This document shows positions 10,450 through 63,934 of a DNA stretch of 64,000 nt, one piece after another (position 1 is the stretch's first letter; each line of letters opens with the position of its first letter). The notes under the pieces are model-generated. The model had not been told where the DNA came from and did no database searches. It was given only the letters and a program-made list of their open reading frames with translations. Origin of the DNA: Candidatus Nealsonbacteria bacterium (GTDB taxonomy: Bacteria; Patescibacteriota; Minisyncoccia; Minisyncoccales; JAGMDC01); the NCBI GenBank assembly GCA_030612885.1, contig JAUWMZ010000001.1:83193-147192 (forward strand). Direction: 5' to 3'. Made by a program: the position numbers and the translations under genes.

Positions 10450-11748
10450 TTGATTATAATGGATATTGTGAATTTGTCAACCCCAACACCAAACAAACAT
10501 AGCTTTGTTGTAGCGCGGGGGTCAATCCTTTTGCTTTTGCTTGTTAGTTTTTTGTTTTTTGAAATCGGTTTTAAGGCCGATTTTATTTTAGCCGATGAAT
10601 CGTTTAATGTAGTAATCAATGAAATTACCTGGATGGGCACAAAAGAATTTTACAACGATGAGTGGATTGAATTATACAATAATAGCGATTCAGCTGTAAA
10701 TCTTAGTGGCTGGACATTAAAAGCTGATGATGGCAGCCCGGAAATTGAACTCTCTGGCAGGATTTTGAGTAAAAGTTTTTATTTGCTGGAAAGGACTGAT
10801 GACGAAACAGTGGCTGGTGTTTTGGCCGACCAAATCTATAAAGGAGGATTGGCTAACAAAGGCGAATGTCTAAAGCTTTTTGATGAACAGGAAAATTTGA
10901 TTGACAAAGTGGACTGCTCTGACGGGTGGTTTGCCGGAGACAACAAGACCAAACAAACAATGGAAAGGTCTGTTGAGGTCAAGCTTCAACAGGTTCATTG
11001 GCAGACCAGCCAAGAGCCGGGCGGCACCCCAAAAAAACAGAATAGCCAACCAGCTGAGGAATCGGTTGAGGTCAAACCTCAACCGTTCCATCAACAGGAG
11101 GTTATTGATGTCAAACTTCAACAGCCTAATTATGGCGTAGTTTATCCTTCCGGGATAGTTGTCAACGAAGTGCTCCCCTCTCCTGAAGGCCCTGATGCAG
11201 AAAATGAATGGATAGAAATTTTCAATGAAAATAATCTTGAAGTTGACATTTCCGGCTGGAAAATTTCTGACACTGTCGGCAGTGTCAAGAGTTATATTTT
11301 TCCCAAAGGAACAAAAATTTCCGGCAAAGGATTCTTGCTTCTCAACAGGCCAAAAACAAAAATTACTTTAAATAATAGCGGTGAGGGATTAAAAATTTTT
11401 AATCCCAATGGAAAAATAGTTGATGAAATAAATTTTGGAAAAGCGCTTTTGGGACAGTCGTATAATAAGTTTGACTCTCAATGGCAGTGGTCAGAGAATC
11501 TAACTCCAGGCTCTGCAAACATCGCCTCATCGGTAAAAAAAGACCTTTTAGAAAACAGTTCCCCAGAAGTTATACAGAAAAATCTGGAGGAGAACAAAAA
11601 TCCTCTTTTATTGTCTTCGCTGTTAGAATCTCCATTGTCAGAGAAAAACAAGAGTTCTATATTTAAATTGTTAATGATTGCTTTATCTATTAGTGTTTGT
11701 TTTGGGTTTTTAATTTTATTTCTAAAAAAGAAATTGAAAACTGATTAA
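10450..11748 (+). CDS. Lamin-tail-domain (LTD) protein with a C-terminal TM anchor
   Basis: Two LTD modules (VVINEITWMG...EWIELYN...LSGWTLK and IVVNEVLPSP...EWIEIFN...ISGWKI); C-terminal hydrophobic helix. Confidence 0.6.
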   Translation: MIIMDIVNLSTPTPNKHSFVVARGSILLLLLVSFLFFEIGFKADFILADESFNVVINEITWMGTKEFYNDEWIELYNNSDSAVNLSGWTLKADDGSPEIELSGRILSKSFYLLERTDDETVAGVLADQIYKGGLANKGECLKLFDEQENLIDKVDCSDGWFAGDNKTKQTMERSVEVKLQQVHWQTSQEPGGTPKKQNSQPAEESVEVKPQPFHQQEVIDVKLQQPNYGVVYPSGIVVNEVLPSPEGPDAENEWIEIFNENNLEVDISGWKISDTVGSVKSYIFPKGTKISGKGFLLLNRPKTKITLNNSGEGLKIFNPNGKIVDEINFGKALLGQSYNKFDSQWQWSENLTPGSANIASSVKKDLLENSSPEVIQKNLEENKNPLLLSSLLESPLSEKNKSSIFKLLMIALSISVCFGFLILFLKKKLKTD

Positions 11749-13598: not shown

Positions 13599-14813
13599 CT
13601 AAATAATTTTAACAAACTTTCTTTTGCCTGCCTGGATTATCGTTCCTTTTTTTACTTTAATATCTTTCTGCCAGTCATTCTGAATTTCATTATCAATTTT
13701 CACTCCTTTTTGCAAAACCAATCTTTTAGCTTCTGATTTTGAGGAAGCTATTTTTGTTTTTACCAGTAAATCTAAAATATTATAAACCCCTGGTTTTAAT
13801 TTGAAACCGGGTATTTTAGAAGGCAGTTTCTTTTCTTTAAAAATTCTATTAAATTCTTTTTCTGCTTTTTCTGCCACACTTTTATTGTGATACATAGTCA
13901 CAATTTCTTTCGCTAAAATAGATTTTGCCTTTTTAGGGTTAAGTTTTTTGGATTTTATATCTTGCGCAATTTGTTTGATTTTGTTTAGGGGAATTTCTGT
14001 CCAATGGGTAAAACAAGAAGCAATAACTTCATCAGGCAAAGCCATTATTCTACCGTACATATTATTTGGTTTTTCGTCCAAGCTAATATAGTTTCCTTCG
14101 CTTTTTGACATTAACATTTTTTTTGTTTTTGGGTCTTCTAAGATTTCTTTTGCTATAACAAATTTTTGTTTCTTTTTGTAAATTTTCATCAAATCTCTTC
14201 CTACCAACATATTGAAAATTTGGTCACTCCCCCCTAATTCAATATCAGTGTCTAACTTTACGGAATCGTATCCTTGCAATAACGGGTATAAAAATTCATG
14301 GAAAAAAATTTCTTTTCCCATTTTCTTTCTTTTTCTGAATATGTCCCTTGCCATTATCTTTTGGATGGTTATTTTACTCATTAAATCCATTATTTCTTCC
14401 AGTTTCATCTTTCCAAACCATTGACTATTGAAAGCAATCTTTACTGAATTTTTTTTAGAATTAAAATCTAAAATTTTCGCTGCCTGCCTTTGATAATTTT
14501 TGTAATTTTCCAAAATTTGTTTTTTAGAAAGTTGTTTGCGCACGGAAAGCTTTCCTGTTGGGTCTCCTATTCTCGCTGTGAAATCCCCAAATAATAAAGT
14601 AACTTGATGCCCTAATTTTTGAAACCGTTTTAGGATTAATAAATTAGTTCCGTGGTCAAGATGTAAATTAGGCGCAGTAGGGTCAATGCCGAAATAAATT
14701 TTTAATTGTTTGTTGGATTTCAAAATTTCTTCCATTTTTCCTTTGGAAGGATAAATTTTTTTAATCGCTCTTGTTAAAACCTCTTCAATTTTTTTTGGAT
14801 TGGTATCTATCAT
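13599..14813 (-). CDS. tyrS: Tyrosine--tRNA ligase
   Basis: HIGH-class motif (PNLHLDHG), KMSKS (KMLMSKSEG), C-terminal S4 domain. Confidence 0.9.
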   Translation of the reverse strand: MIDTNPKKIEEVLTRAIKKIYPSKGKMEEILKSNKQLKIYFGIDPTAPNLHLDHGTNLLILKRFQKLGHQVTLLFGDFTARIGDPTGKLSVRKQLSKKQILENYKNYQRQAAKILDFNSKKNSVKIAFNSQWFGKMKLEEIMDLMSKITIQKIMARDIFRKRKKMGKEIFFHEFLYPLLQGYDSVKLDTDIELGGSDQIFNMLVGRDLMKIYKKKQKFVIAKEILEDPKTKKMLMSKSEGNYISLDEKPNNMYGRIMALPDEVIASCFTHWTEIPLNKIKQIAQDIKSKKLNPKKAKSILAKEIVTMYHNKSVAEKAEKEFNRIFKEKKLPSKIPGFKLKPGVYNILDLLVKTKIASSKSEAKRLVLQKGVKIDNEIQNDWQKDIKVKKGTIIQAGKRKFVKII

Positions 14814-15564
14814 AATTTTGAGGGACAGGGGAGGGACAGTCCCTCCCCTGTCCCTCTACGATATTTAGATGACGTGTCTTAAGAAAATATCCAGAAACGA
14901 GAAGGTCTTTGGCTAATTTCCGATATTCTTGTCTGGCTTTTTTAATATTATTAGAGACAAGAGATAAAATAAATTTATCCTGGGTAATTCCATCCTCTCT
15001 TAATCCAAGATGAACAGGATAACTATTCCAGGGGTCTCTCTCGGCTTCCTCTAAAAGTTTTGTCAAAATGCTTTTTGAAATATTTTGGTTATTAATACGC
15101 TGAAGTTTTTCCAGAACTTTATTTAGATTAATATAAATGGAAGTGGGTAAAAGAGCATTTTCTCCAAGTTGTTCTGCTTTAAATCTATCTTGGAACAAAT
15201 GCCCTACCCGAGAATACTTTTTATTTATATGGAGACCAAAACTAGTATGGAGACTACCAATAAATTTACTAGGAGGAACTTCAGAAGTTTGTTCAATTAA
15301 ATAATGAACATGGTTAGGAAGTAAATTATAGGCATGAATGTTCACTGGATATTTTTTAAGAAATTCTTTAATTTTATAAAGATAAAATATAAAATCTTCT
15401 TTCCTGTGAAAGATATTTTCTTTAGCAACTCCTCTACTAAAAATATGCCAAAAACTTCCTTTATAAAATTTTCGTAGTTGTCTCATATATAGAAAAAGAT
15501 TTATGAACTGTCCTTTTCTTATCCCTTCTTTATTTATAATAGCAAAATTATTAGAATTTGCCAA
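14785..15564 (-). CDS. REP-associated tyrosine transposase (RAYT; IS200/IS605 Y1 HuH family)
   Basis: HuH motif NHVHYLIE; downstream tyrosine region GHLFQDRFKAE...YINLN; flanked on both sides by the same palindrome; the 3' end runs into the REP and overlaps the tyrS start, so the true start and stop are uncertain. Confidence 0.7.
   Translation of the reverse strand: MANSNNFAIINKEGIRKGQFINLFLYMRQLRKFYKGSFWHIFSRGVAKENIFHRKEDFIFYLYKIKEFLKKYPVNIHAYNLLPNHVHYLIEQTSEVPPSKFIGSLHTSFGLHINKKYSRVGHLFQDRFKAEQLGENALLPTSIYINLNKVLEKLQRINNQNISKSILTKLLEEAERDPWNSYPVHLGLREDGITQDKFILSLVSNNIKKARQEYRKLAKDLLVSGYFLKTRHLNIVEGQGRDCPSPVPQNYDRYQSKKN
14820..14856. repeat. REP-like GC-rich palindrome (copy 1) flanking the RAYT
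   Basis: gagggacaggggagggac a gtccctcccctgtccctc: 18-bp arms in an AT-rich genome. Confidence 0.85.
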
Positions 15565-15565
15565 A

Positions 15566-15613
15566 CAAACAAGGGACAGGGGAGGGACAGTCCCTCCCCT
15601 GTCCCTTGTTTGC
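15566..15613. repeat. REP-like GC-rich palindrome (copy 2, extended arms)
   Basis: caaacaagggacaggggagggacagtccctcccctgtcccttgtttg; the direct repeat tttgccaaa lies on both flanks. Confidence 0.85.
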
Positions 15614-31042: not shown

Positions 31043-31420
31043 ATGCCTTATCGTCATCAACAATTCGTCAATAGAGAAATATATCACATTATCATCAGGG
31101 GAATCGATGATAATTTAATCTTTAGGAACGCAGACGATTATTATCGAGCTATTTTTTCTATCTATGAATTTAATAATGCTAACGCGGTAGAAATTTATAA
31201 AAGGCGCCGTGAAATTCAAACCATAAAAAAACATTTAAAGAACAAGCCGGGGGAGGCCGGGCCTCCCCCGAGCTTTTCGTTAGGATTTTGGACGCGTATA
31301 CGCAGAAGATTTGACAAATTTGGTATAGATGCTATAATTATGGCAGCACTCTACAATAGAATATATGATAAAGGCTATGCGATGAAAGTGCTGATAGAAA
31401 GTAAAAAAAATAGGAGGTGA
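31043..31420 (+). pseudogene. RAYT/IS200-like N-terminal fragment carrying an in-frame GC palindrome
   Basis: REIYHIIIRGIDDNLIFRNADDYYRAIFSI parallels the RAYT N-terminus GSFWHIFSRGVAKENIF; no HuH motif; the palindrome ccgggggaggccgggcctcccccg at 31247-31270 is translated as GEAGPPP. Confidence 0.4.
31247..31270. repeat. Perfect GC-rich palindrome inside an ORF
   Basis: ccgggggaggccgggcctcccccg. Confidence 0.8.
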
Positions 31421-35541: not shown

Positions 35542-36456
35542 TTAGTCCCCTTTAAAGGTTTTTGTCAAATTGAGCCAGTCCTGGATGGTCAGGGTTTCAG
35601 CTCGCTGAGATGGTTGAATATTATTTTGAATCAGCCATTTTTTAATTTTTTCCTTGTCTAATTTCAGTTCTTTGACAAACTCAGGACAAGCTCCTGAAAA
35701 ATTATTCAAAATCTGTTTTCTGGGATGAGAAAATCCAGCCTTTACAATCTTGAAGAACAAATCAACGAGTCCGGGTCTCGTTGTTAGTTTTTGAGGTTGA
35801 GGAGTTATTTTTATAATTGCGGAGTCAACCTTTGGTTCTGGCCAAAATGATTTTTTAGAAATGTAGTCAATAATCTTTGCTTGAGCGTAAAATTGAACCG
35901 AAACAGCTAAAATACTCATTTTTGGTGGCTTAGCGCCCGCCTCGCCCGCCGAGCGGGCTCGGCGAGGCGGGCAAATTCTTTGAGCCATTTCTTTCTGAAC
36001 TATGAGAATCATCTGGCAAGGTCTCATCTGGCGATGTTTGACATCGCCAGCTTCATCAACAGCCTCAAGAAATTTTCTGATGACTGGCGCAGTTAAATAA
36101 AAAGGCAAATTACTAAGTATCTTGTATCTTATATCTCGTATTTTGTATTTCAAAATGTCTTCTTGGACGATTTCAATATTTTGAAAATCCTTTAAGGTTT
36201 CTTTTAGAATCTCGCACATTTTTATGTCTTTTTCGCAAGCAATAACTCTTTTTGCTTTTCTTGCTATTTCTTGAGTTAAAGTGCCAATGCCTGGTCCGAT
36301 TTCCAAAATAGTATCAAAAGGTTTTAAATCAGCTGATTTGATAACTTTTCTAACTACTGATTTGTCAATCAAAAAATTCTGGCCAAATTTTTTTGATGGT
36401 CTAATATTATACTTTTTTAAGATTTCTTTGATTGTTTTTTTTGATGCCAGATTCAT
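35542..36456 (-). CDS. rsmA: 16S rRNA (adenine1518/1519-N6) dimethyltransferase RsmA/KsgA with an in-frame GC-rich palindromic insertion
   Basis: FGQNFLIDKSVVRKVI...ILEIGPGIGTLT SAM motif; the insertion encodes PRRARSAGEAGA between QRICPP and KPPKMSILAVSVQ. Confidence 0.85.
   Translation of the reverse strand: MNLASKKTIKEILKKYNIRPSKKFGQNFLIDKSVVRKVIKSADLKPFDTILEIGPGIGTLTQEIARKAKRVIACEKDIKMCEILKETLKDFQNIEIVQEDILKYKIRDIRYKILSNLPFYLTAPVIRKFLEAVDEAGDVKHRQMRPCQMILIVQKEMAQRICPPRRARSAGEAGAKPPKMSILAVSVQFYAQAKIIDYISKKSFWPEPKVDSAIIKITPQPQKLTTRPGLVDLFFKIVKAGFSHPRKQILNNFSGACPEFVKELKLDKEKIKKWLIQNNIQPSQRAETLTIQDWLNLTKTFKGD
35934..35972. repeat. GC-rich imperfect palindrome inside ksgA
   Basis: gcccgcctcgcc...ggcgaggcgggc arms in an otherwise AT-rich gene. 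Confidence 0.8.
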
Positions 36457-37599: not shown

Positions 37600-39126
37600 T
37601 CAGTTTTCTTTTATTCTATACATCAGAGCTTCGGAAAGATGGTCAAAAGAGATACTTTCTGACTGGTCTAAATCAGCAATAGTTCGGCTGACTTTGAGAG
37701 TGCGATGAAATCCGCGGGCAGAAAGTTTGCCGGAATCAACATATTTTTTCAATAATGCCTGGGATTTCAAGTCAATTTGGCAGAATTTCTTAATTTCAGG
37801 AATTGACATTTCAGAATTAGTCAAACTCAACGAGAACCGTTCTCGCCCGCTCAAATTTTGCTTTGCAAAACTTAGGCGGGCTCGTTGAATTTGACGGGCT
37901 TTGATCACTTTTTCTCTTATTTCAGAACTGGAATTTTTTTCATCTTCAGCCACTAGCCTCTCATATTTCAGTTGAGGAACTTCAATAAAAAGGTCAATTC
38001 TGTCCATTAAAGGTCCGGATAGTTTTCTTCTATATTTACTAATTTGAGAAGGGGTACAGGTACATTGTCTTTCCGGGTCTCCATAATAACCGCAGGGGCA
38101 AGGGTTAGAAGCAGCAACTAAGGTAAAGCGGGCTGGCAAGGTTAAGCGGTTTTTCGCCCGGAGAATGGTAATTTCCCCTTCTTCAATCGGCTGGCGTAAA
38201 GATTCTAAAACATCTCTGTGAAATTCTGGAAATTCATCTAAAAATAAAATGCCTCTGTGAGCTAAAGTGATTTCTCCGGGTCTGGGAGGATTGCCTCCGC
38301 CAATCAGGGCTGGTTCAGATGAAGCATGATGAGGCGAGCGAAAAGGCCTTAATTTAATTAAAGCCGTTCCCAAAGGCAGAAGTCCGCTGATGCTGTAAAT
38401 TTTAGTGACTTCCAGGGATTCTTCAAAAGAAAGAGGGGGCAGGATAGAAGGAATGGCTTTGGCTAAAAGTGTTTTTCCAGCGCCAGGCGGTCCCAACATC
38501 AAAAGATGATGGCTGCCAGCAGCAGCAATTTCCAATGCCCTTTTAGCGTATCCCTGCCCTTTAATCCAGGCAAGGTCAACAGAATAGTTCTGTTCCTCCA
38601 AAAATTTTTCCTTGTCTGTTTGAAAAGAAGAAATCATTTTCTTTCCTTCCAAGTAATCAATGACTTCTTTTAAGGTTTCTACTCCGATTATTTTTATTGC
38701 TTCTGGCTTGGCATCAGAGGCATCATCTTCTTTAATTAAGTTTATTAAACCTGCCTCTGAAGCATTAGCTTTTGGCAGGATTATTTCTTTTAATCCGTTT
38801 TTCTTAGCTGCCAATACCAAGGAAAGAGTTCCTTTTATTGGTCTTAGCTTCCCGTCTAAAGCTAATTCTCCAACAAAAATTTTATTCCGAGCATCAAATC
38901 TTACTTGCTCAGAGGCAGATAAAAAAGCTAAAGCAATAGGCAGGTCGTATAAAGAACCTTCTTTTTTTAAATCAGCCGGAGCTAAATTTACTAAAACCCG
39001 AATGGGCTGGCTAAAAGGAGATTTAAATTTAGAACTGTTTATTGCTGAACCAACTCTTTCTTTTGACTCTTCAACCGCTTTGTCAGGCAGGCCGACGATA
39101 TTAAGGGAGGCGATAATACCCCATCT
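37600..39126 (-). CDS. comM: ComM/YifB Mg-chelatase-like AAA+ ATPase, 3' portion separated from its start by an inserted element
   Basis: Walker A GPPGAGKTLLA; my own translation upstream of the track start continues as IIASLNIVGLPDKAVEESKERVGSAINS...VNLAPADLKKEGSLYDLPIALAFLSASEQ, the ComM N-domain; the frame hits a stop at 39127 with about 25 N-terminal residues missing; a nested palindromic insertion lies at 37820-37895. Confidence 0.85.
   Translation of the reverse strand, partial: RWGIIASLNIVGLPDKAVEESKERVGSAINSSKFKSPFSQPIRVLVNLAPADLKKEGSLYDLPIALAFLSASEQVRFDARNKIFVGELALDGKLRPIKGTLSLVLAAKKNGLKEIILPKANASEAGLINLIKEDDASDAKPEAIKIIGVETLKEVIDYLEGKKMISSFQTDKEKFLEEQNYSVDLAWIKGQGYAKRALEIAAAGSHHLLMLGPPGAGKTLLAKAIPSILPPLSFEESLEVTKIYSISGLLPLGTALIKLRPFRSPHHASSEPALIGGGNPPRPGEITLAHRGILFLDEFPEFHRDVLESLRQPIEEGEITILRAKNRLTLPARFTLVAASNPCPCGYYGDPERQCTCTPSQISKYRRKLSGPLMDRIDLFIEVPQLKYERLVAEDEKNSSSEIREKVIKARQIQRARLSFAKQNLSGRERFSLSLTNSEMSIPEIKKFCQIDLKSQALLKKYVDSGKLSARGFHRTLKVSRTIADLDQSESISFDHLSEALMYRIKEN
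37820..37895. repeat. Nested palindromic element in frame within comM
   Basis: gtcaaactcaacgag ... ctcgttgaatttgac outer arms; inner cgagaaccgttctcg and gcccgc/gcgggc pairs. Confidence 0.65.
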
Positions 39127-40679
39127 TCAATAGGAAACATCTGCACTAATCGTTGATTATCTACTGGGACATATCCAGTTATCCACGCTTCACCCTTGCG
39201 TGAATCAAGTATTATTTTGTCAAGGATACAATTTAGAAATTGTTGTTTTTGTTCAGGAGTTATAGATTCTAACCGTTGCATAACTAAACGAGAAAAATGT
39301 TTGACAGCCTCAATAAACATAGGTTTGCTAACTGCTTGTGTTAATTTACTTTCATTCTCTTTTATTTTATCTTCCAGTTCCTTTTCTATCTGAGTAAGTT
39401 CACTGATTTTCTTTAGAAATAATTCTTTAGGTATATTCCCCTCTGTATAAAGTTCTAATAGTTTATCTTTTTTATAATCTATTTTTTCTTTTTCTCTGGA
39501 CCAATCTTTTTCCTCTTTTTCTAATAACTTTTGATTTTCAATAACTTTTTTAGTTAAAAGTGAAATACCACTAATAAGTATTTTAGGATTTTTTACTGCG
39601 TTGCTGACAGCAGTCCATACGCTATTATCTAACTGATTAACCCTTACCATCTTTGCATTACAATCTTTAGGAAAGGGGAATTTTTTATGACGATTGTTGC
39701 ATCTGTAATACTGATGACTTCTGACAGTCTCGCCTGTAAAACTTGACCCACACAATTTACATTTTATAAGTCCACTTAGTAAATAGAAATGTTTTCTGTC
39801 AGCATACGGCTTATAATTTTTTGATAATAGTTTCTGAACAAATCTAAATTTCTCTTTAGATATTATAACAGGAAATTTAATAGGAATCCATTCGCTCCTA
39901 TCTCTTTTTCTCCTTCCAGTTTTTATTGTTCTTTTATATTTTTTTCCATTTTCAGTTTCCACGCTATAATTTTTACAATAATAACCTGTTCCAACACAAG
40001 ACTCATTTCTTAAAATCCTTCCTACTACACTATTGTTCCATTTTATTCCTCCTTTTCTAGGTTTAATACCCTTCAATGTTAATTCTTTAACAACCCTGCT
40101 CAAACTCTGAAATTTAATATAAAAGTCAAACATTAAAATTACAATTTCTGCTTCTTTCTTGTTAATTTTATAATAACCCTCTTTTTCTGGAGTTTTTTTA
40201 ATATAATCATAGCCAAATGGAGGAGTGCTTCCTACGATTCCTTTTTGTTTCGCCTTAAAAATTCTCCCCCTTCTGGTCCTTTCTAAAATCCTTTCTTTTT
40301 CGTATTCTGCTGTGGCACCAAGCACATTAAACATAAATCTTCCTTCTGGAGTGTCAGAGATTGGTTTATCACCTATAAAGATTTCTATGTTTGCTTTTTT
40401 AAACTCTTCAACTATAATCCCCTGCTGATAAAGGTTTCTGGATAACCGGTCCACCGAATGAACATATACGGCTTCAAATAAACCCTTTTTAACATCTCTC
40501 CTTAAACAATCTAAAGATGGTCTATCTAAACTCTCTCCAGAGTAGCCGTTATCTAAATATTCCTCAACAATTTCAAAATTCTTGCAGATTTCTCTTAATT
40601 CTGCTATTTGCGATTTAATTGTCTTTTGTTCTTCCTGTTTCTCGGTAGAAACACGACAATATAATGCTACTTTTTTCAT
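39039..40679 (-). CDS. Large serine recombinase (integrase)
   Basis: N-terminal resolvase domain (LYCRVSTEKQ, catalytic Ser; DRLSRN); recombinase domain; zinc ribbon CKLCGSSF...YYRCNN; C-terminal coiled coil. Confidence 0.85.
   Translation of the reverse strand: MKKVALYCRVSTEKQEEQKTIKSQIAELREICKNFEIVEEYLDNGYSGESLDRPSLDCLRRDVKKGLFEAVYVHSVDRLSRNLYQQGIIVEEFKKANIEIFIGDKPISDTPEGRFMFNVLGATAEYEKERILERTRRGRIFKAKQKGIVGSTPPFGYDYIKKTPEKEGYYKINKKEAEIVILMFDFYIKFQSLSRVVKELTLKGIKPRKGGIKWNNSVVGRILRNESCVGTGYYCKNYSVETENGKKYKRTIKTGRRKRDRSEWIPIKFPVIISKEKFRFVQKLLSKNYKPYADRKHFYLLSGLIKCKLCGSSFTGETVRSHQYYRCNNRHKKFPFPKDCNAKMVRVNQLDNSVWTAVSNAVKNPKILISGISLLTKKVIENQKLLEKEEKDWSREKEKIDYKKDKLLELYTEGNIPKELFLKKISELTQIEKELEDKIKENESKLTQAVSKPMFIEAVKHFSRLVMQRLESITPEQKQQFLNCILDKIILDSRKGEAWITGYVPVDNQRLVQMFPIEDGVLSPPLISSACLTKRLKSQKKELVQQ
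39098..39112. other. attL core of the comM-integrated element
   Basis: 13 of 14 nt shared with the far junction; a crossover here rebuilds ...VSFGLRS(F/L)NIVGLPD. Confidence 0.6.
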
Positions 40680-40805
40680 AGTTTTTCTAATTTAAGACCC
40701 CGCTAAGCTGTTGGGCTGTGCGGGGTCATAAAATAAATACCCAACAGCTTTAATTTTAGAATAATCAATTATAAAACAATGTCAAGGTGCTTATCTAAAA
40801 TAAGC

Positions 40806-40935
40806 GTTTTTCTTACACCTCCTACACTTTACTATTTTTTGAGTTCAAATAAGCGGTGTAAGTCTTCAATGTAAGGGTTTAGGGGTGTAAGTATGGTCTT
40901 ACACCATCAAACTCTTACACTGACGACTTACACTC
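40806..40935. repeat. Iteron-like array of TTACAC(C/T) repeats
   Basis: At least six copies of the 7-mer in both orientations between the Rep-like gene and the recombinase. Confidence 0.6.
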
Positions 40936-62302: not shown

Positions 62303-63781
62303 ATGGAAATTCCTAAAGAAGTAAAATTTGTAATTGAGAAATTAAAAACTCAAGGATTTGAGACCTATCTTGTTGGTGGCTGTGTTAGGGATTTGTTGCG
62401 TGGAAAAGAGCCATTGGATTGGGATATAGCAACTAATGCCAAACCAGAAGAAATTGAAAAGATTTTTCCGAATAGCTTTACAGATAATAAATTTGGCACT
62501 GTGGCAGTTTTAACTAAAAGTAAAGACCCGGCCTTAAAGGGAATTGAAATTACTCCTTACAGAATAGAATCAAAATATACTGACAAAAGGCATCCTGACA
62601 AGATACAATGGGCAAAAACTCTAAAAGAAGATTTAAAGAGGAGGGATTTTACCATAAATGCAATGGCCCTAAAAATGAGGGACAGTCCCTCCCCTGTCCC
62701 TCCCCTGTCCCTCGTTGACCTTTTTGGAGGGCAGGAGGATTTAGAAAACAAAATCATTCGGGCAGTGGGTGAGCCGGAACACAGGTTTCAGGAAGATGCT
62801 TTGCGCTTGATGAGAGCAGTAAGATTTGCTGCTGTTTTAGGAGAGGGGTGGAAAATTGAAGCAAAAACCGAGAAAGCAATTAAGAAAAATGCTGGTTTGC
62901 TTCAAATGATTTCTCAAGAAAGAATCAGGGATGAATTAATAAAAATGATAATGTCTGAAAGAGGAGCTGATGGTATAGAAATGTTGCGAGAACTCGGACT
63001 TTTAAAATATATAATTCCAGAATTAGAAGAAGGATATGGAGTTTCCCAGAACAAACATCATATTTACGAGGTTTATGAACATTCTTTGCGCTCTTTGAAA
63101 TATGCCTGCGAAAAAGGATTTAATAAATATGTTCGCTTGGCCGCCCTTTTGCATGATATTGGCAAGCCCAGAACTAAGCAAGGACAGGGGCTTGACGCTA
63201 CTTTTTACAACCATGAAATCGTTGGCGCTAAAATGACTATCCGTCTTTTGAATCGGCTGAAGTTTTCTAAAAAAGACATTGAGAAAATAGTTAAATTGGT
63301 GCGTTATCATTTGTTTTATTATAATGTTGACGAAGTTGGAGAATCATCGGTGCGGCGCTTGGTGCGTCAGGTTGGGTTGGAAAATATGGATGAACTTTTA
63401 CAAGTGAGGATGGCTGACAGAATTGGGTCTGGCGTGCCAAAGGCAGAGCCGTATAAATTAAGGCATCTAAAATATATTATTGAAAAAGTTTCCCAGGATC
63501 CTATTTCAGTAACACGGCTTAAAGTAAACGGCGAGGATGTAATGAAAATTTTAAAAATTAAGCCGGGTCCGAAAATAGGACAGCTTTTAGATATTTTACT
63601 TGGTTATGTTTTGATTGAACCAAGCAAAAATAAAAAAGATTTTTTAGAAAAAGAAATGAATAAATTAGGCAAGATTTCTGAAAACGAATTAAAAGCGCTG
63701 GCAGAAAAAGCGCGCAAAGAAAGAATGGAAATTGTGATGAAACAAGACGAAATGACAAAAAAGAAATACTGGGTGACGTAG
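62303..63781 (+). CDS. cca: CCA-adding tRNA nucleotidyltransferase / poly(A) polymerase-family enzyme with an HD domain, carrying an in-frame REP insertion
   Basis: GGCVRDLLLGKEP...DWD head motif, RRDFTINAMA, HD motif LAALLHDIGKP; the REP copy at 62677-62714 is translated as RDSPSPVPPLSLV. Confidence 0.85.
   Translation: MEIPKEVKFVIEKLKTQGFETYLVGGCVRDLLRGKEPLDWDIATNAKPEEIEKIFPNSFTDNKFGTVAVLTKSKDPALKGIEITPYRIESKYTDKRHPDKIQWAKTLKEDLKRRDFTINAMALKMRDSPSPVPPLSLVDLFGGQEDLENKIIRAVGEPEHRFQEDALRLMRAVRFAAVLGEGWKIEAKTEKAIKKNAGLLQMISQERIRDELIKMIMSERGADGIEMLRELGLLKYIIPELEEGYGVSQNKHHIYEVYEHSLRSLKYACEKGFNKYVRLAALLHDIGKPRTKQGQGLDATFYNHEIVGAKMTIRLLNRLKFSKKDIEKIVKLVRYHLFYYNVDEVGESSVRRLVRQVGLENMDELLQVRMADRIGSGVPKAEPYKLRHLKYIIEKVSQDPISVTRLKVNGEDVMKILKIKPGPKIGQLLDILLGYVLIEPSKNKKDFLEKEMNKLGKISENELKALAEKARKERMEIVMKQDEMTKKKYWVT
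62677..62714. repeat. Partial REP copy (duplicated right arm) in frame inside cca
   Basis: gagggacagtccctcccctgtccctcccctgtccctcg; same family as the RAYT-flanking REPs. Confidence 0.85.
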
Positions 63782-63934
63782 CTCGGGAAGCTAATTTTTA
63801 GTACACGCGATTTTTTCCAGCGAAAAATCGCTGCTACTCACGAATTGCCGAGCACTCAACAAGTTGAGTGCTCGGACCAAGCCAATTCGCTGCGGATTGT
63901 CCTAAAAATTACTTCCCTCGCTCGTTATTTATTA
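63782..63934 (+). other. GC-rich, highly structured element of about 150 nt upstream of tRNA-Pro; unclassified
   Basis: Hairpin gcgattttttccagcgaaaaatcgc; perfect 28-bp palindrome ccgagcactcaacaagttgagtgctcgg at 63848-63875, nested in cgaattg/caattcg arms; no match recognised to SRP, RNase P or tmRNA. Confidence 0.4.

Follow-up and report, generated by a model that had tools for sequence, protein, structure and literature searches.

The window analyzed here is a stretch of 64,000 nucleotides from a Candidatus Nealsonbacteria genome (assembly GCA_030612885.1, contig JAUWMZ010000001.1, positions 83,193 to 147,192 of the forward strand), whose host resembles Parcubacteria. Close to its 3′ end lies cca, the gene of a CCA-adding tRNA nucleotidyltransferase, and within its reading frame a segment was found that is derived from a family of repetitive extragenic palindromes (REPs). 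Two further copies of this family flank a gene for a protein similar to REP-associated tyrosine transposases (RAYTs). The features of the cca locus are the following:

62303..63781, plus strand: cca, class II CCA-adding tRNA nucleotidyltransferase, 492 aa, intact (Pfam, NCBIfam, PDB alignment, motifs)
approximately 62672..62713, plus strand: REP-derived in-frame segment AAAATGAGGGAC-A-GTCCC(TCCCCTGTCCC)x2-TC, encoding K124–L137 (KMRDSPSPVPPLSL, 14 aa), delimited by comparison with REP copies at loci L207, L208, L210, L211, and L116
62677..62685, plus strand: left arm GAGGGACAG of the intragenic palindrome
62690..62711, plus strand: tandem pair of the 11-nt unit TCCCCTGTCCC, forming the duplicated right arm

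Judged by its domains and motifs, the gene is that of a class II CCA-adding enzyme. The open reading frame (ORF) matches the Pfam families PolyA_pol (7.9e-36), PolyA_pol_RNAbd, HD, and tRNA_NucTran2_2, that is, all four domains of bacterial CCA-adding enzymes; the CCA families of NCBIfam match as well, with scores below their cut-offs. The class II features comprise the head with motifs A to E, the neck, the body, and the C-terminal HD domain that is present in this clade. The catalytic motifs GGCVRD, DWD, RRDFTINA, DLFGG..DL, and EDALR are readable in the translation, and the residues D30, D39, D41, R113, R114, D115, D139, E164, D165, and R168 are invariant across 73 homologs. The protein can be aligned with the solved CCA enzymes 6ibp and 1miv (PDB), which have an eight-residue gap opposite the REP-derived segment (6ibp). 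In an AlphaFold model (73 homologs, mean pLDDT 86, pTM 0.80), the segment lies on a surface β-hairpin joining motif B (RRD) to motif C (DxxGG..DL), with the strands M121–M125 and L135–D139 and the tip R126–P134; pLDDT values drop below 50 at residues 128–132 in the tip. An earlier note on this DNA had anticipated such a surface loop, and the model agrees with it. From the known class II fold, we infer that the hairpin tip is peripheral to the active site. The enzyme most likely works normally and carries the REP peptide as a passenger.

At positions 62677–62713, the GC-rich sequence reads GAGGGAC-A-GTCCC-TCCCCTGTCCC-TCCCCTGTCCC-TC. The 11-nt unit occurs at 62690–62700 and again at 62701–62711, and the duplication of the right arm described in the earlier note is therefore real. 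In this arrangement, the left arm GAGGGACAG has two alternative partners CTGTCCCTC (62694–702 or 62705–713), and the cca isomer has an off-centre palindrome centre and unequal arms. The segment is translated as ...RRDFTINAMA-LKMRDSPSPVPPLSLV-DLFGG..., with RDSPSPVPPLSL as the peptide encoded by the REP-derived DNA. No stop codon interrupts the frame between RRDFTINAMA and DLFGG, as had been claimed, and none was found within the segment in any of the six frames. The element is conspicuous in its surroundings: its GC content is about 70% over 37–47 nt in a window of about 35% GC, the 9-mer GAGGGACAG occurs 7 times in the window (0.12 expected), and the 22-mer core of the REP occurs 5 times (0 expected). 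The earlier note had set the limits at 62677 and 62714. A REP does lie there, but the REP copies of related genomes begin with AAAATGA, and the REP-derived stretch in cca therefore starts at 62672 and extends to 62713, covering the 14 codons K124–L137.

The RNA hairpin of the cca copy has a predicted folding energy of −18 kcal/mol (z = −5.2), which is less than half as strong as the −38.6 and −45.2 kcal/mol of the two copies beside the RAYT-like gene. Intergenic copies resemble terminators by virtue of a T-run, which in cca lies on the antisense side. A role of the cca copy as a terminator was considered and dismissed, since the sense strand is not terminator-like and only the antisense strand is. 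A search of Rfam and for tRNAs around cca returned tRNAs only and no RNA family at the REP insert.

The assignment to a REP family is based on the RAYT-like gene of the window and its flanks:

14785..15486, minus strand: gene of a RAYT-like transposase of the Y1 (HUH) type; the deposited protein has 233 aa (Pfam Y1_Tnp 5.1e-12)
14820..14856, no strand assigned: full symmetric REP copy on the 3′ side of the RAYT-like gene, 18-nt arms, 1-nt centre (RNA fold −38.6 kcal/mol)
15566..15612, no strand assigned: full symmetric REP copy at the 5′ side of the same gene, with arms of 23 nt if the flanks are counted in and the core at 15573–15605 (RNA fold −45.2 kcal/mol)

Both flanking copies are perfect palindromes of the form GGGACAGGGGAGGGAC-A-GTCCCTCCCCTGTCCC. 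The RAYT-like protein contains the HVH (HUH) motif and the tyrosine motif YINLN and passes the Pfam cut-off of Y1_Tnp (46.4 vs. 23). Its best match in NCBIfam is NF047646 REP_Tyr_transpos (34.8 bits), compared to 19.9 bits for IS200. About 120 homologs with 57–79% identity were found, mostly in Patescibacteria, some of which have been named RayT by the Joint Genome Institute (JGI). Two attributes of REP/RAYT systems are thus present, namely a short GC-rich repeated palindrome and a Y1 HUH gene with copies of one REP on either side; the extragenic location of REPs is departed from by the copies inside cca and, at L207, inside ligA. The ORF of the RAYT-like protein lacks the usual stop: it continues through the 3′ REP (..GQGRDCPSPVPQ..), which lies a short way ahead of tyrS, and extends into an overlap with the start codon of tyrS at 14813. 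Its final 22 or so residues are encoded by the REP, and homologs end about 22 residues earlier.

In five other genomes (L074, L207, L208, L210, and L211), the homologous RAYT gene likewise has copies of this REP on either side, in line with the REP identity proposed in the earlier note. From these related copies, a family consensus was derived, (A)A-TGA-GGGAC-W-GTCCC-(TCCCCTGTCCC)n-TCA/TGA-TTT, in which 11-nt units are arranged around the core TGAGGGAC-W-GTCCCTCA. Asymmetric forms are normal in the family, as exemplified by the intergenic copy L211 17566–17609 with two units. This copy and the RAYT-flanking REPs are intergenic or located at gene ends, nearly all REP copies are preceded by ..AAT, and in several related genomes the REPs on both sides of the RAYT gene have the same orientation and are not inverted. 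A scan of 596 Gb of genome contigs with the 16-mer GGGACAGGGGAGGGAC gave 119 matches, almost all of them chance matches in GC-rich genomes. The only relevant ones were L074 (Parcubacteria, with RAYT) and L070, L073, and L116 (Saccharibacteria). The Saccharibacteria loci L073 and L116 (CAYLWZ01...) contain the same GGGACAG-based REP, with a GTCAA unit variant, as well as a RAYT of 72% identity (P0151), and the REP/RAYT pair is therefore common to distant classes of Patescibacteria. The chance matches in Firmicutes (L017, L080, L082, and L101; Syntrophaceticus, Syntrophomonadaceae, Coprococcus) are arrays of GGGACAGGGG(A/G)-type repeats ending with GGGGACGGTTCTGTGTCCC, which by their sequence constitute a different repeat family with a similar core.

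Contigs with this RAYT family are mostly only about 1–3 kb long, a hint that assembly from short reads is interrupted at the REPs on either side of the gene; such breaks would bias REP censuses based on metagenome-assembled genomes. They also raise the question of whether the cca segment could have arisen as an error in sequencing or assembling a repeat, for instance by chimeric joining or through collapse of a palindrome. This is hardly credible, because two records carry the identical cca protein, cca genes with a REP are known from more than ten independent metagenomes, where the synteny pnp-NYN-rpsO-pilin-cca is conserved, and the reading frame and every motif of cca are intact.

The same site of cca is occupied by REPs in other genomes as well. 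About 17 cca homologs read LKIRDRGGTGEGQSLV at the loop between motifs B and C, and the underlying DNA (L001, L127, and L176) is this REP turned around. Reverse-complemented, the L127 loop reads AATGAGGGAC-T-GTCCC(TCCCCTGTCCC)2-TGATTT, also written AATGAGGGACTGTCCC(TCCCCTGTCCC)2TGATTT, and equals the intergenic copy L211 17566–17609. At L212, the loop carries AATGAGGGACAGTCCCGGGAC... of the CCGGGAC type, the variant that flanks the RAYT gene of L211, and at L213 it carries a partly decayed REP (RDRRGTGEKQSL) with TCTCC units as in the RAYT flanks of L208. The REP-bearing cca genes are polyphyletic according to a loop-masked tree and pairwise identities. The cca protein of the window is 91% identical to P0002, which has another insert, and 73–76% identical to other REP bearers; relatives of the REP-bearing P0074 and P0080 at 89–91% identity carry a GGGTCAGAC palindrome instead. 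Among L001, L127, and L176, the 36-nt REP is 100% identical, although the flanking 150 nt are only 71–77% and third codon positions only 44–60% identical. The REP has therefore been either repeatedly deposited or continuously homogenized and is no old neutral relic. Taken together, these findings show that the cca segment belongs to the RAYT-linked REP family and that REPs occupy this loop in several unrelated cca lineages; they make it probable that the segment is a REP copy written into the tip of the motif B–C hairpin, at a site that is recurrently re-occupied.

The recurrence can also be viewed as the result of a single ancient insertion in an ancestor of this Parcubacteria clade, followed by vertical descent, gene conversion to the REPs of each genome, flips via the palindromic core, and many losses or decay that gave rise to the other loop types. 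All REP-bearing cca genes share the same codon position and flanks (..AAA A|REP|TT GAY, or AAAA|REP|TTGA in both orientations), as expected for a common origin, and decayed copies exist in L213 and perhaps in the L003 loop, which shares AAAATGA... and PLSL. Bertels and Rainey are said to have found that REPIN populations are long-lived at fixed loci. However, many independent losses or replacements would be needed, with REP bearers standing beside 88–91% identical relatives that carry other palindromes. Conversion would have to hold 36 nt identical while nearby third codon positions are at about 50%, and it would have to account for three sub-variants and two orientations. We therefore regard the single ancient insertion as unlikely, albeit as the most serious competitor to repeated occupation.

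The loop between motifs B and C proved to be hypervariable far beyond the REP-bearing genes. Its length ranges from 8 to 30 aa among 120 close homologs (70–87% identical overall) and from 7 to 41 aa in 80 further metagenome loci, and it is the only strongly length-variable internal region of the protein (standard deviation 3.6 vs. ≤1.3 elsewhere). Short canonical loops of the MDINGKII type, whose sequence includes ..AAAATTATTGAT.., have no palindrome. Many long loops are perfect palindromes with stems of 10–13 bp, for example L156 (AATTGCACGGGTT-C-AACCCGTGCAATT), L181, L183, L146, L148, and L203. The peptide had been proposed to be specific to the lineage, and this is borne out by the nearest homolog P0002, which is 91% identical outside the loop yet has a different loop, as well as by the gap in 6ibp. 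In the cca gene of this nearest homolog (L005/L006 10400–10456, GCA_023130975.1), a 57-nt in-frame insert with the imperfect palindrome CCCCGTACCGAAAC-GAA-GTTTCTGGTTCGGGG was observed. It is bordered by TTAAAAGTT direct repeats resembling a target duplication, and its removal leaves a loop like those of P0110 and P0095.

Copies of the loop sequences elsewhere were sought with blastn-short. A 47-nt element of the L005 loop was detected in L143 and L155 and at another place within the cca gene of L170 (4616–4662), the L177/L168 loop element was found upstream of cca in L152 and L168, a second copy of the L181 palindrome lies in L151, and heptamer repeats of the loops occur in intergenic DNA, too. 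These copies argue against the proposal that the loop palindromes arise in place, without a mobile element, by template-switch replication errors that perfect quasi-palindromes. The same is true of the window's own 33–37-nt sequence, copies of which lie beside RAYT genes in at least six genomes, in ligA, and in intergenic DNA. Template switching would fit the perfect 10–13-bp palindromes of L156, L183, L146, and L203, which cover all of the DNA encoding the hairpin and are single-copy in the available DNA, and the palindromes of L152 and L168, which take in conserved motif-B codons (GTCAATGC..GCATTGAC). For the REP in the window it does not hold, and overall it is improbable.

A function of the hairpin in cca itself, either as an mRNA structure for translation or stability or as a variable protein loop, for example for escape from an inhibitor, is more doubtful still. 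The significant RNA fold of the window copy and the presence of one hypervariable loop in an otherwise 70–90% conserved enzyme would be consistent with such a function. The structure is not conserved, however: orthologs have hairpin-free loops of 7 aa or unrelated sequences, and the fold of the reverse-orientation REP copy is not significant (z = −1.9).

According to the favoured explanation, repeated occupation by REPs, the RAYT would place REP DNA at the cca loop by hairpin-guided single-strand cleavage and joining of the Y1 HUH type; conversion of the loop from other REP copies may be an alternative route. Deposition or overwriting would happen repeatedly at a loop that presumably tolerates added residues, and of the products only those in frame, terminator-free, and weakly folding would survive selection.

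Several observations weigh against this explanation. The RAYT-like ORF does not reach the NCBIfam cut-off for REP-associated transposases (34.8 bits vs. 80), and the 64-kb window contains only three REP loci. The GTAG or CGTC tag is absent from the REP hairpin ends, which read (A/T/C)TGA-GGGAC...GTCCC-TCA; a CTAC follows only the copy 14820–56, by happenstance. No direct repeat borders the cca element of the window as a target-site duplication. An empty site for the window lineage was not found among the homologs, and since the nearest relative carries a different loop, the insertion event is inferred rather than observed. The native hairpin tip of the MDINGKII type is missing, with four to five native codons gone. 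Together with the lack of a target-site duplication, this points to a replacement or a two-step event and not to a simple insertion. Of the statement in the earlier note that a REP was inserted, the derivation from a REP is thus retained, whereas a clean insertion is not. Finally, the recurrence may reflect either targeting or one ancient copy that is kept uniform by conversion.

A bolder version of repeated occupation can be advanced tentatively, although we consider it somewhat less probable than its opposite: in Patescibacteria, REPs would truly dock at the motif B–C hairpin of the essential gene cca, where each genome's current variant would be rewritten repeatedly and in either orientation, owing to the site or structure specificity of the RAYT or to conversion.

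The earlier note had suggested a genome-wide process, naming palindromes in ksgA, comM, and a RAYT-like fragment. Further in-frame cases do exist, both in the window and in a related genome. At L207 11229–11265, a REP of the same family lies in frame in ligA, the gene of the NAD-dependent DNA ligase (..AQKMRDRGGTVPQIVVRGEA). It uses the same frame (AAA ATG AGG GAC) as the REP in the cca gene of the window, its 12 residues replace about 10 native ones, and it is unique to L207 among 120 LigA homologs. The ligA site was examined as a second hot spot and rejected, as the segment measures 34–36 aa in nearly all parsed LigA homologs. Because the ligA site is invariable in other lineages, the cca loop is special and not one of many tolerant loops. 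The ksgA gene of the window was characterized as follows:

35542–36456, minus strand: ksgA, with two GC-rich in-frame palindromes unrelated in sequence to the cca REP

The first of these palindromes, CTGGCGATGT-CAA-ACATCGCCAG at 36028–36050, coincides with an 8-residue insertion relative to KsgA of B. subtilis (6ifs), and the second, an imperfect palindrome of about 40 nt at 35940–35978 that encodes CPPRRARSAGEAGA, coincides with a 10-residue insertion relative to the same protein. The palindrome in the RAYT-like fragment was recovered as well (CGGGGGAGGCC-G-GGCCTCCCCCG, 31248–31270); it lies in frame in an ORF of 125 aa that shows weak similarity to RAYTs at the N-terminus (pairwise E = 7e-4). 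In addition, the ORF of a Lamin-tail-domain protein (Pfam LTD) contains a GC-rich perfect palindrome in frame, CGGTTGAGGT-CAA-ACCTCAACCG (11063–11085). The case of comM (37600–38820, minus strand) did not hold, because it has only one palindrome with a 7-bp stem. The comM gene encodes 406 aa without the N-terminal domain of the 509-aa homolog in L001 and adjoins a gene for a large serine recombinase (39039–40679) and a 36-nt inverted repeat (40856–40933); an element may have integrated into comM (37600–40933).

Downstream of the cca stop, a structured element of about 140 nt (63781–63930, also L206 11480–11632) was detected, followed by a tRNA-Pro(CGG) gene that is cut by the end of the window. 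It has long-range inverted ends (GCTCGGGAAGCTAATTTTTAG / CTAAAAATTACTTCCCTCGC) and an inner 13-bp perfect palindrome (CCGAGCACTCAAC-AA-GTTGAGTGCTCGG, 63848–63875), and no Rfam family matched it.

REPs are among the commonest repeats of bacteria, and how they move and land is poorly understood, partly because the copies are mostly intergenic and hard to align between distant genomes. With a fixed, alignable site in a universally conserved enzyme, one can count on a gene tree how often REPs were gained, replaced, inverted, or left to decay, and the variants of the cca loop are defined substrates for in vitro tests of RAYTs. If the docking site is a true one, the turnover of REPs would directly create lineage-specific protein loops, and the cca loop would be a natural read-out of REP mobility and specificity. 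The findings also show that, in the gene-dense genomes of Patescibacteria, core enzymes can have their surface loops reshaped by repeats (cca, ksgA, ligA), with consequences for how these proteins are annotated, modelled, and aligned for phylogenies.

REPIN/RAYT systems of Pseudomonas and E. coli, reportedly the subject of work by Nunvar in 2010, by Bertels and Rainey in 2011, and by Ton-Hoang and Messing in 2012, consist of a single Y1 HUH gene flanked by the REP type whose copies are scattered over the genome. The presumed recognition unit of the RAYT is the hairpin together with a short conserved 5′ tag; REPs of these systems lie essentially outside genes, and their RAYTs fall into other sequence groups. 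The window shares with them the Y1 HUH gene flanked by REPs; the NCBIfam score of its RAYT is only 34.8 bits. The same catalytic domain (Pfam Y1_Tnp) is found in TnpA of IS200/IS605 elements, whose single-strand, hairpin-guided chemistry could set an element by a short target motif on either strand. In contrast to these elements, the dispersed REP copies are transposase-free, lack a demonstrated target motif, and measure about 40 nt, compared to over 600 nt for the insertion sequences. Miniature inverted-repeat transposable elements are defined by terminal inverted repeats plus a target-site duplication; the element of the window does not qualify as one, with no direct repeat at its borders, in contrast to the L005 insert and its TTAAAAGTT repeats.

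A literature search, in which most subscription journals were not covered, yielded nothing relevant on REP/RAYT systems in Patescibacteria or the candidate phyla radiation and, in the portions of the sources that were accessible, no description of the recurrent occupation of one intragenic site by REPs. Intragenic REPs as such are known. In the work of Di Nocera et al. (2013, PMC3733652), REPs of the GTAG and CGTC super-families that are linked to RAYTs (“REPtrons”) are described for several phyla, a minority of them inside genes for known proteins, including DNA ligase and tRNA-related enzymes, to which they add 10–30 residues. The likeness lies in short GC-rich REPs that are tied to RAYT genes and in some cases intragenic. 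The element in cca differs in having no GTAG or CGTC tag, in its core TGAGGGAC-W-GTCCCTCA, in its host among the Patescibacteria, and in the use of one site in polyphyletic orthologs, in both orientations and with several sub-variants. Rickettsia palindromic elements (RPEs) are palindromic repeats that lie in frame in housekeeping genes and are compatible with the protein fold as they are located at the surface (PMC3733652, PMC10969869); those of the RPE-1 type measure about 100–150 bp (Ogata et al. 2000, via PMC3733652, PMC10969869). The resemblance to RPEs drawn in the earlier note applies to function, that is, an in-frame surface palindrome in a housekeeping gene, but not to size and sequence. 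The cca REP has 42 nt, is tied to a RAYT, and resides in a host other than Rickettsia, and the two are called unrelated in sequence on the basis of the published RPE descriptions. In-frame intragenic REPs and RPEs are therefore established, and what the cca loop would add to them is a REP site in an essential gene of Patescibacteria that is recurrently re-occupied.

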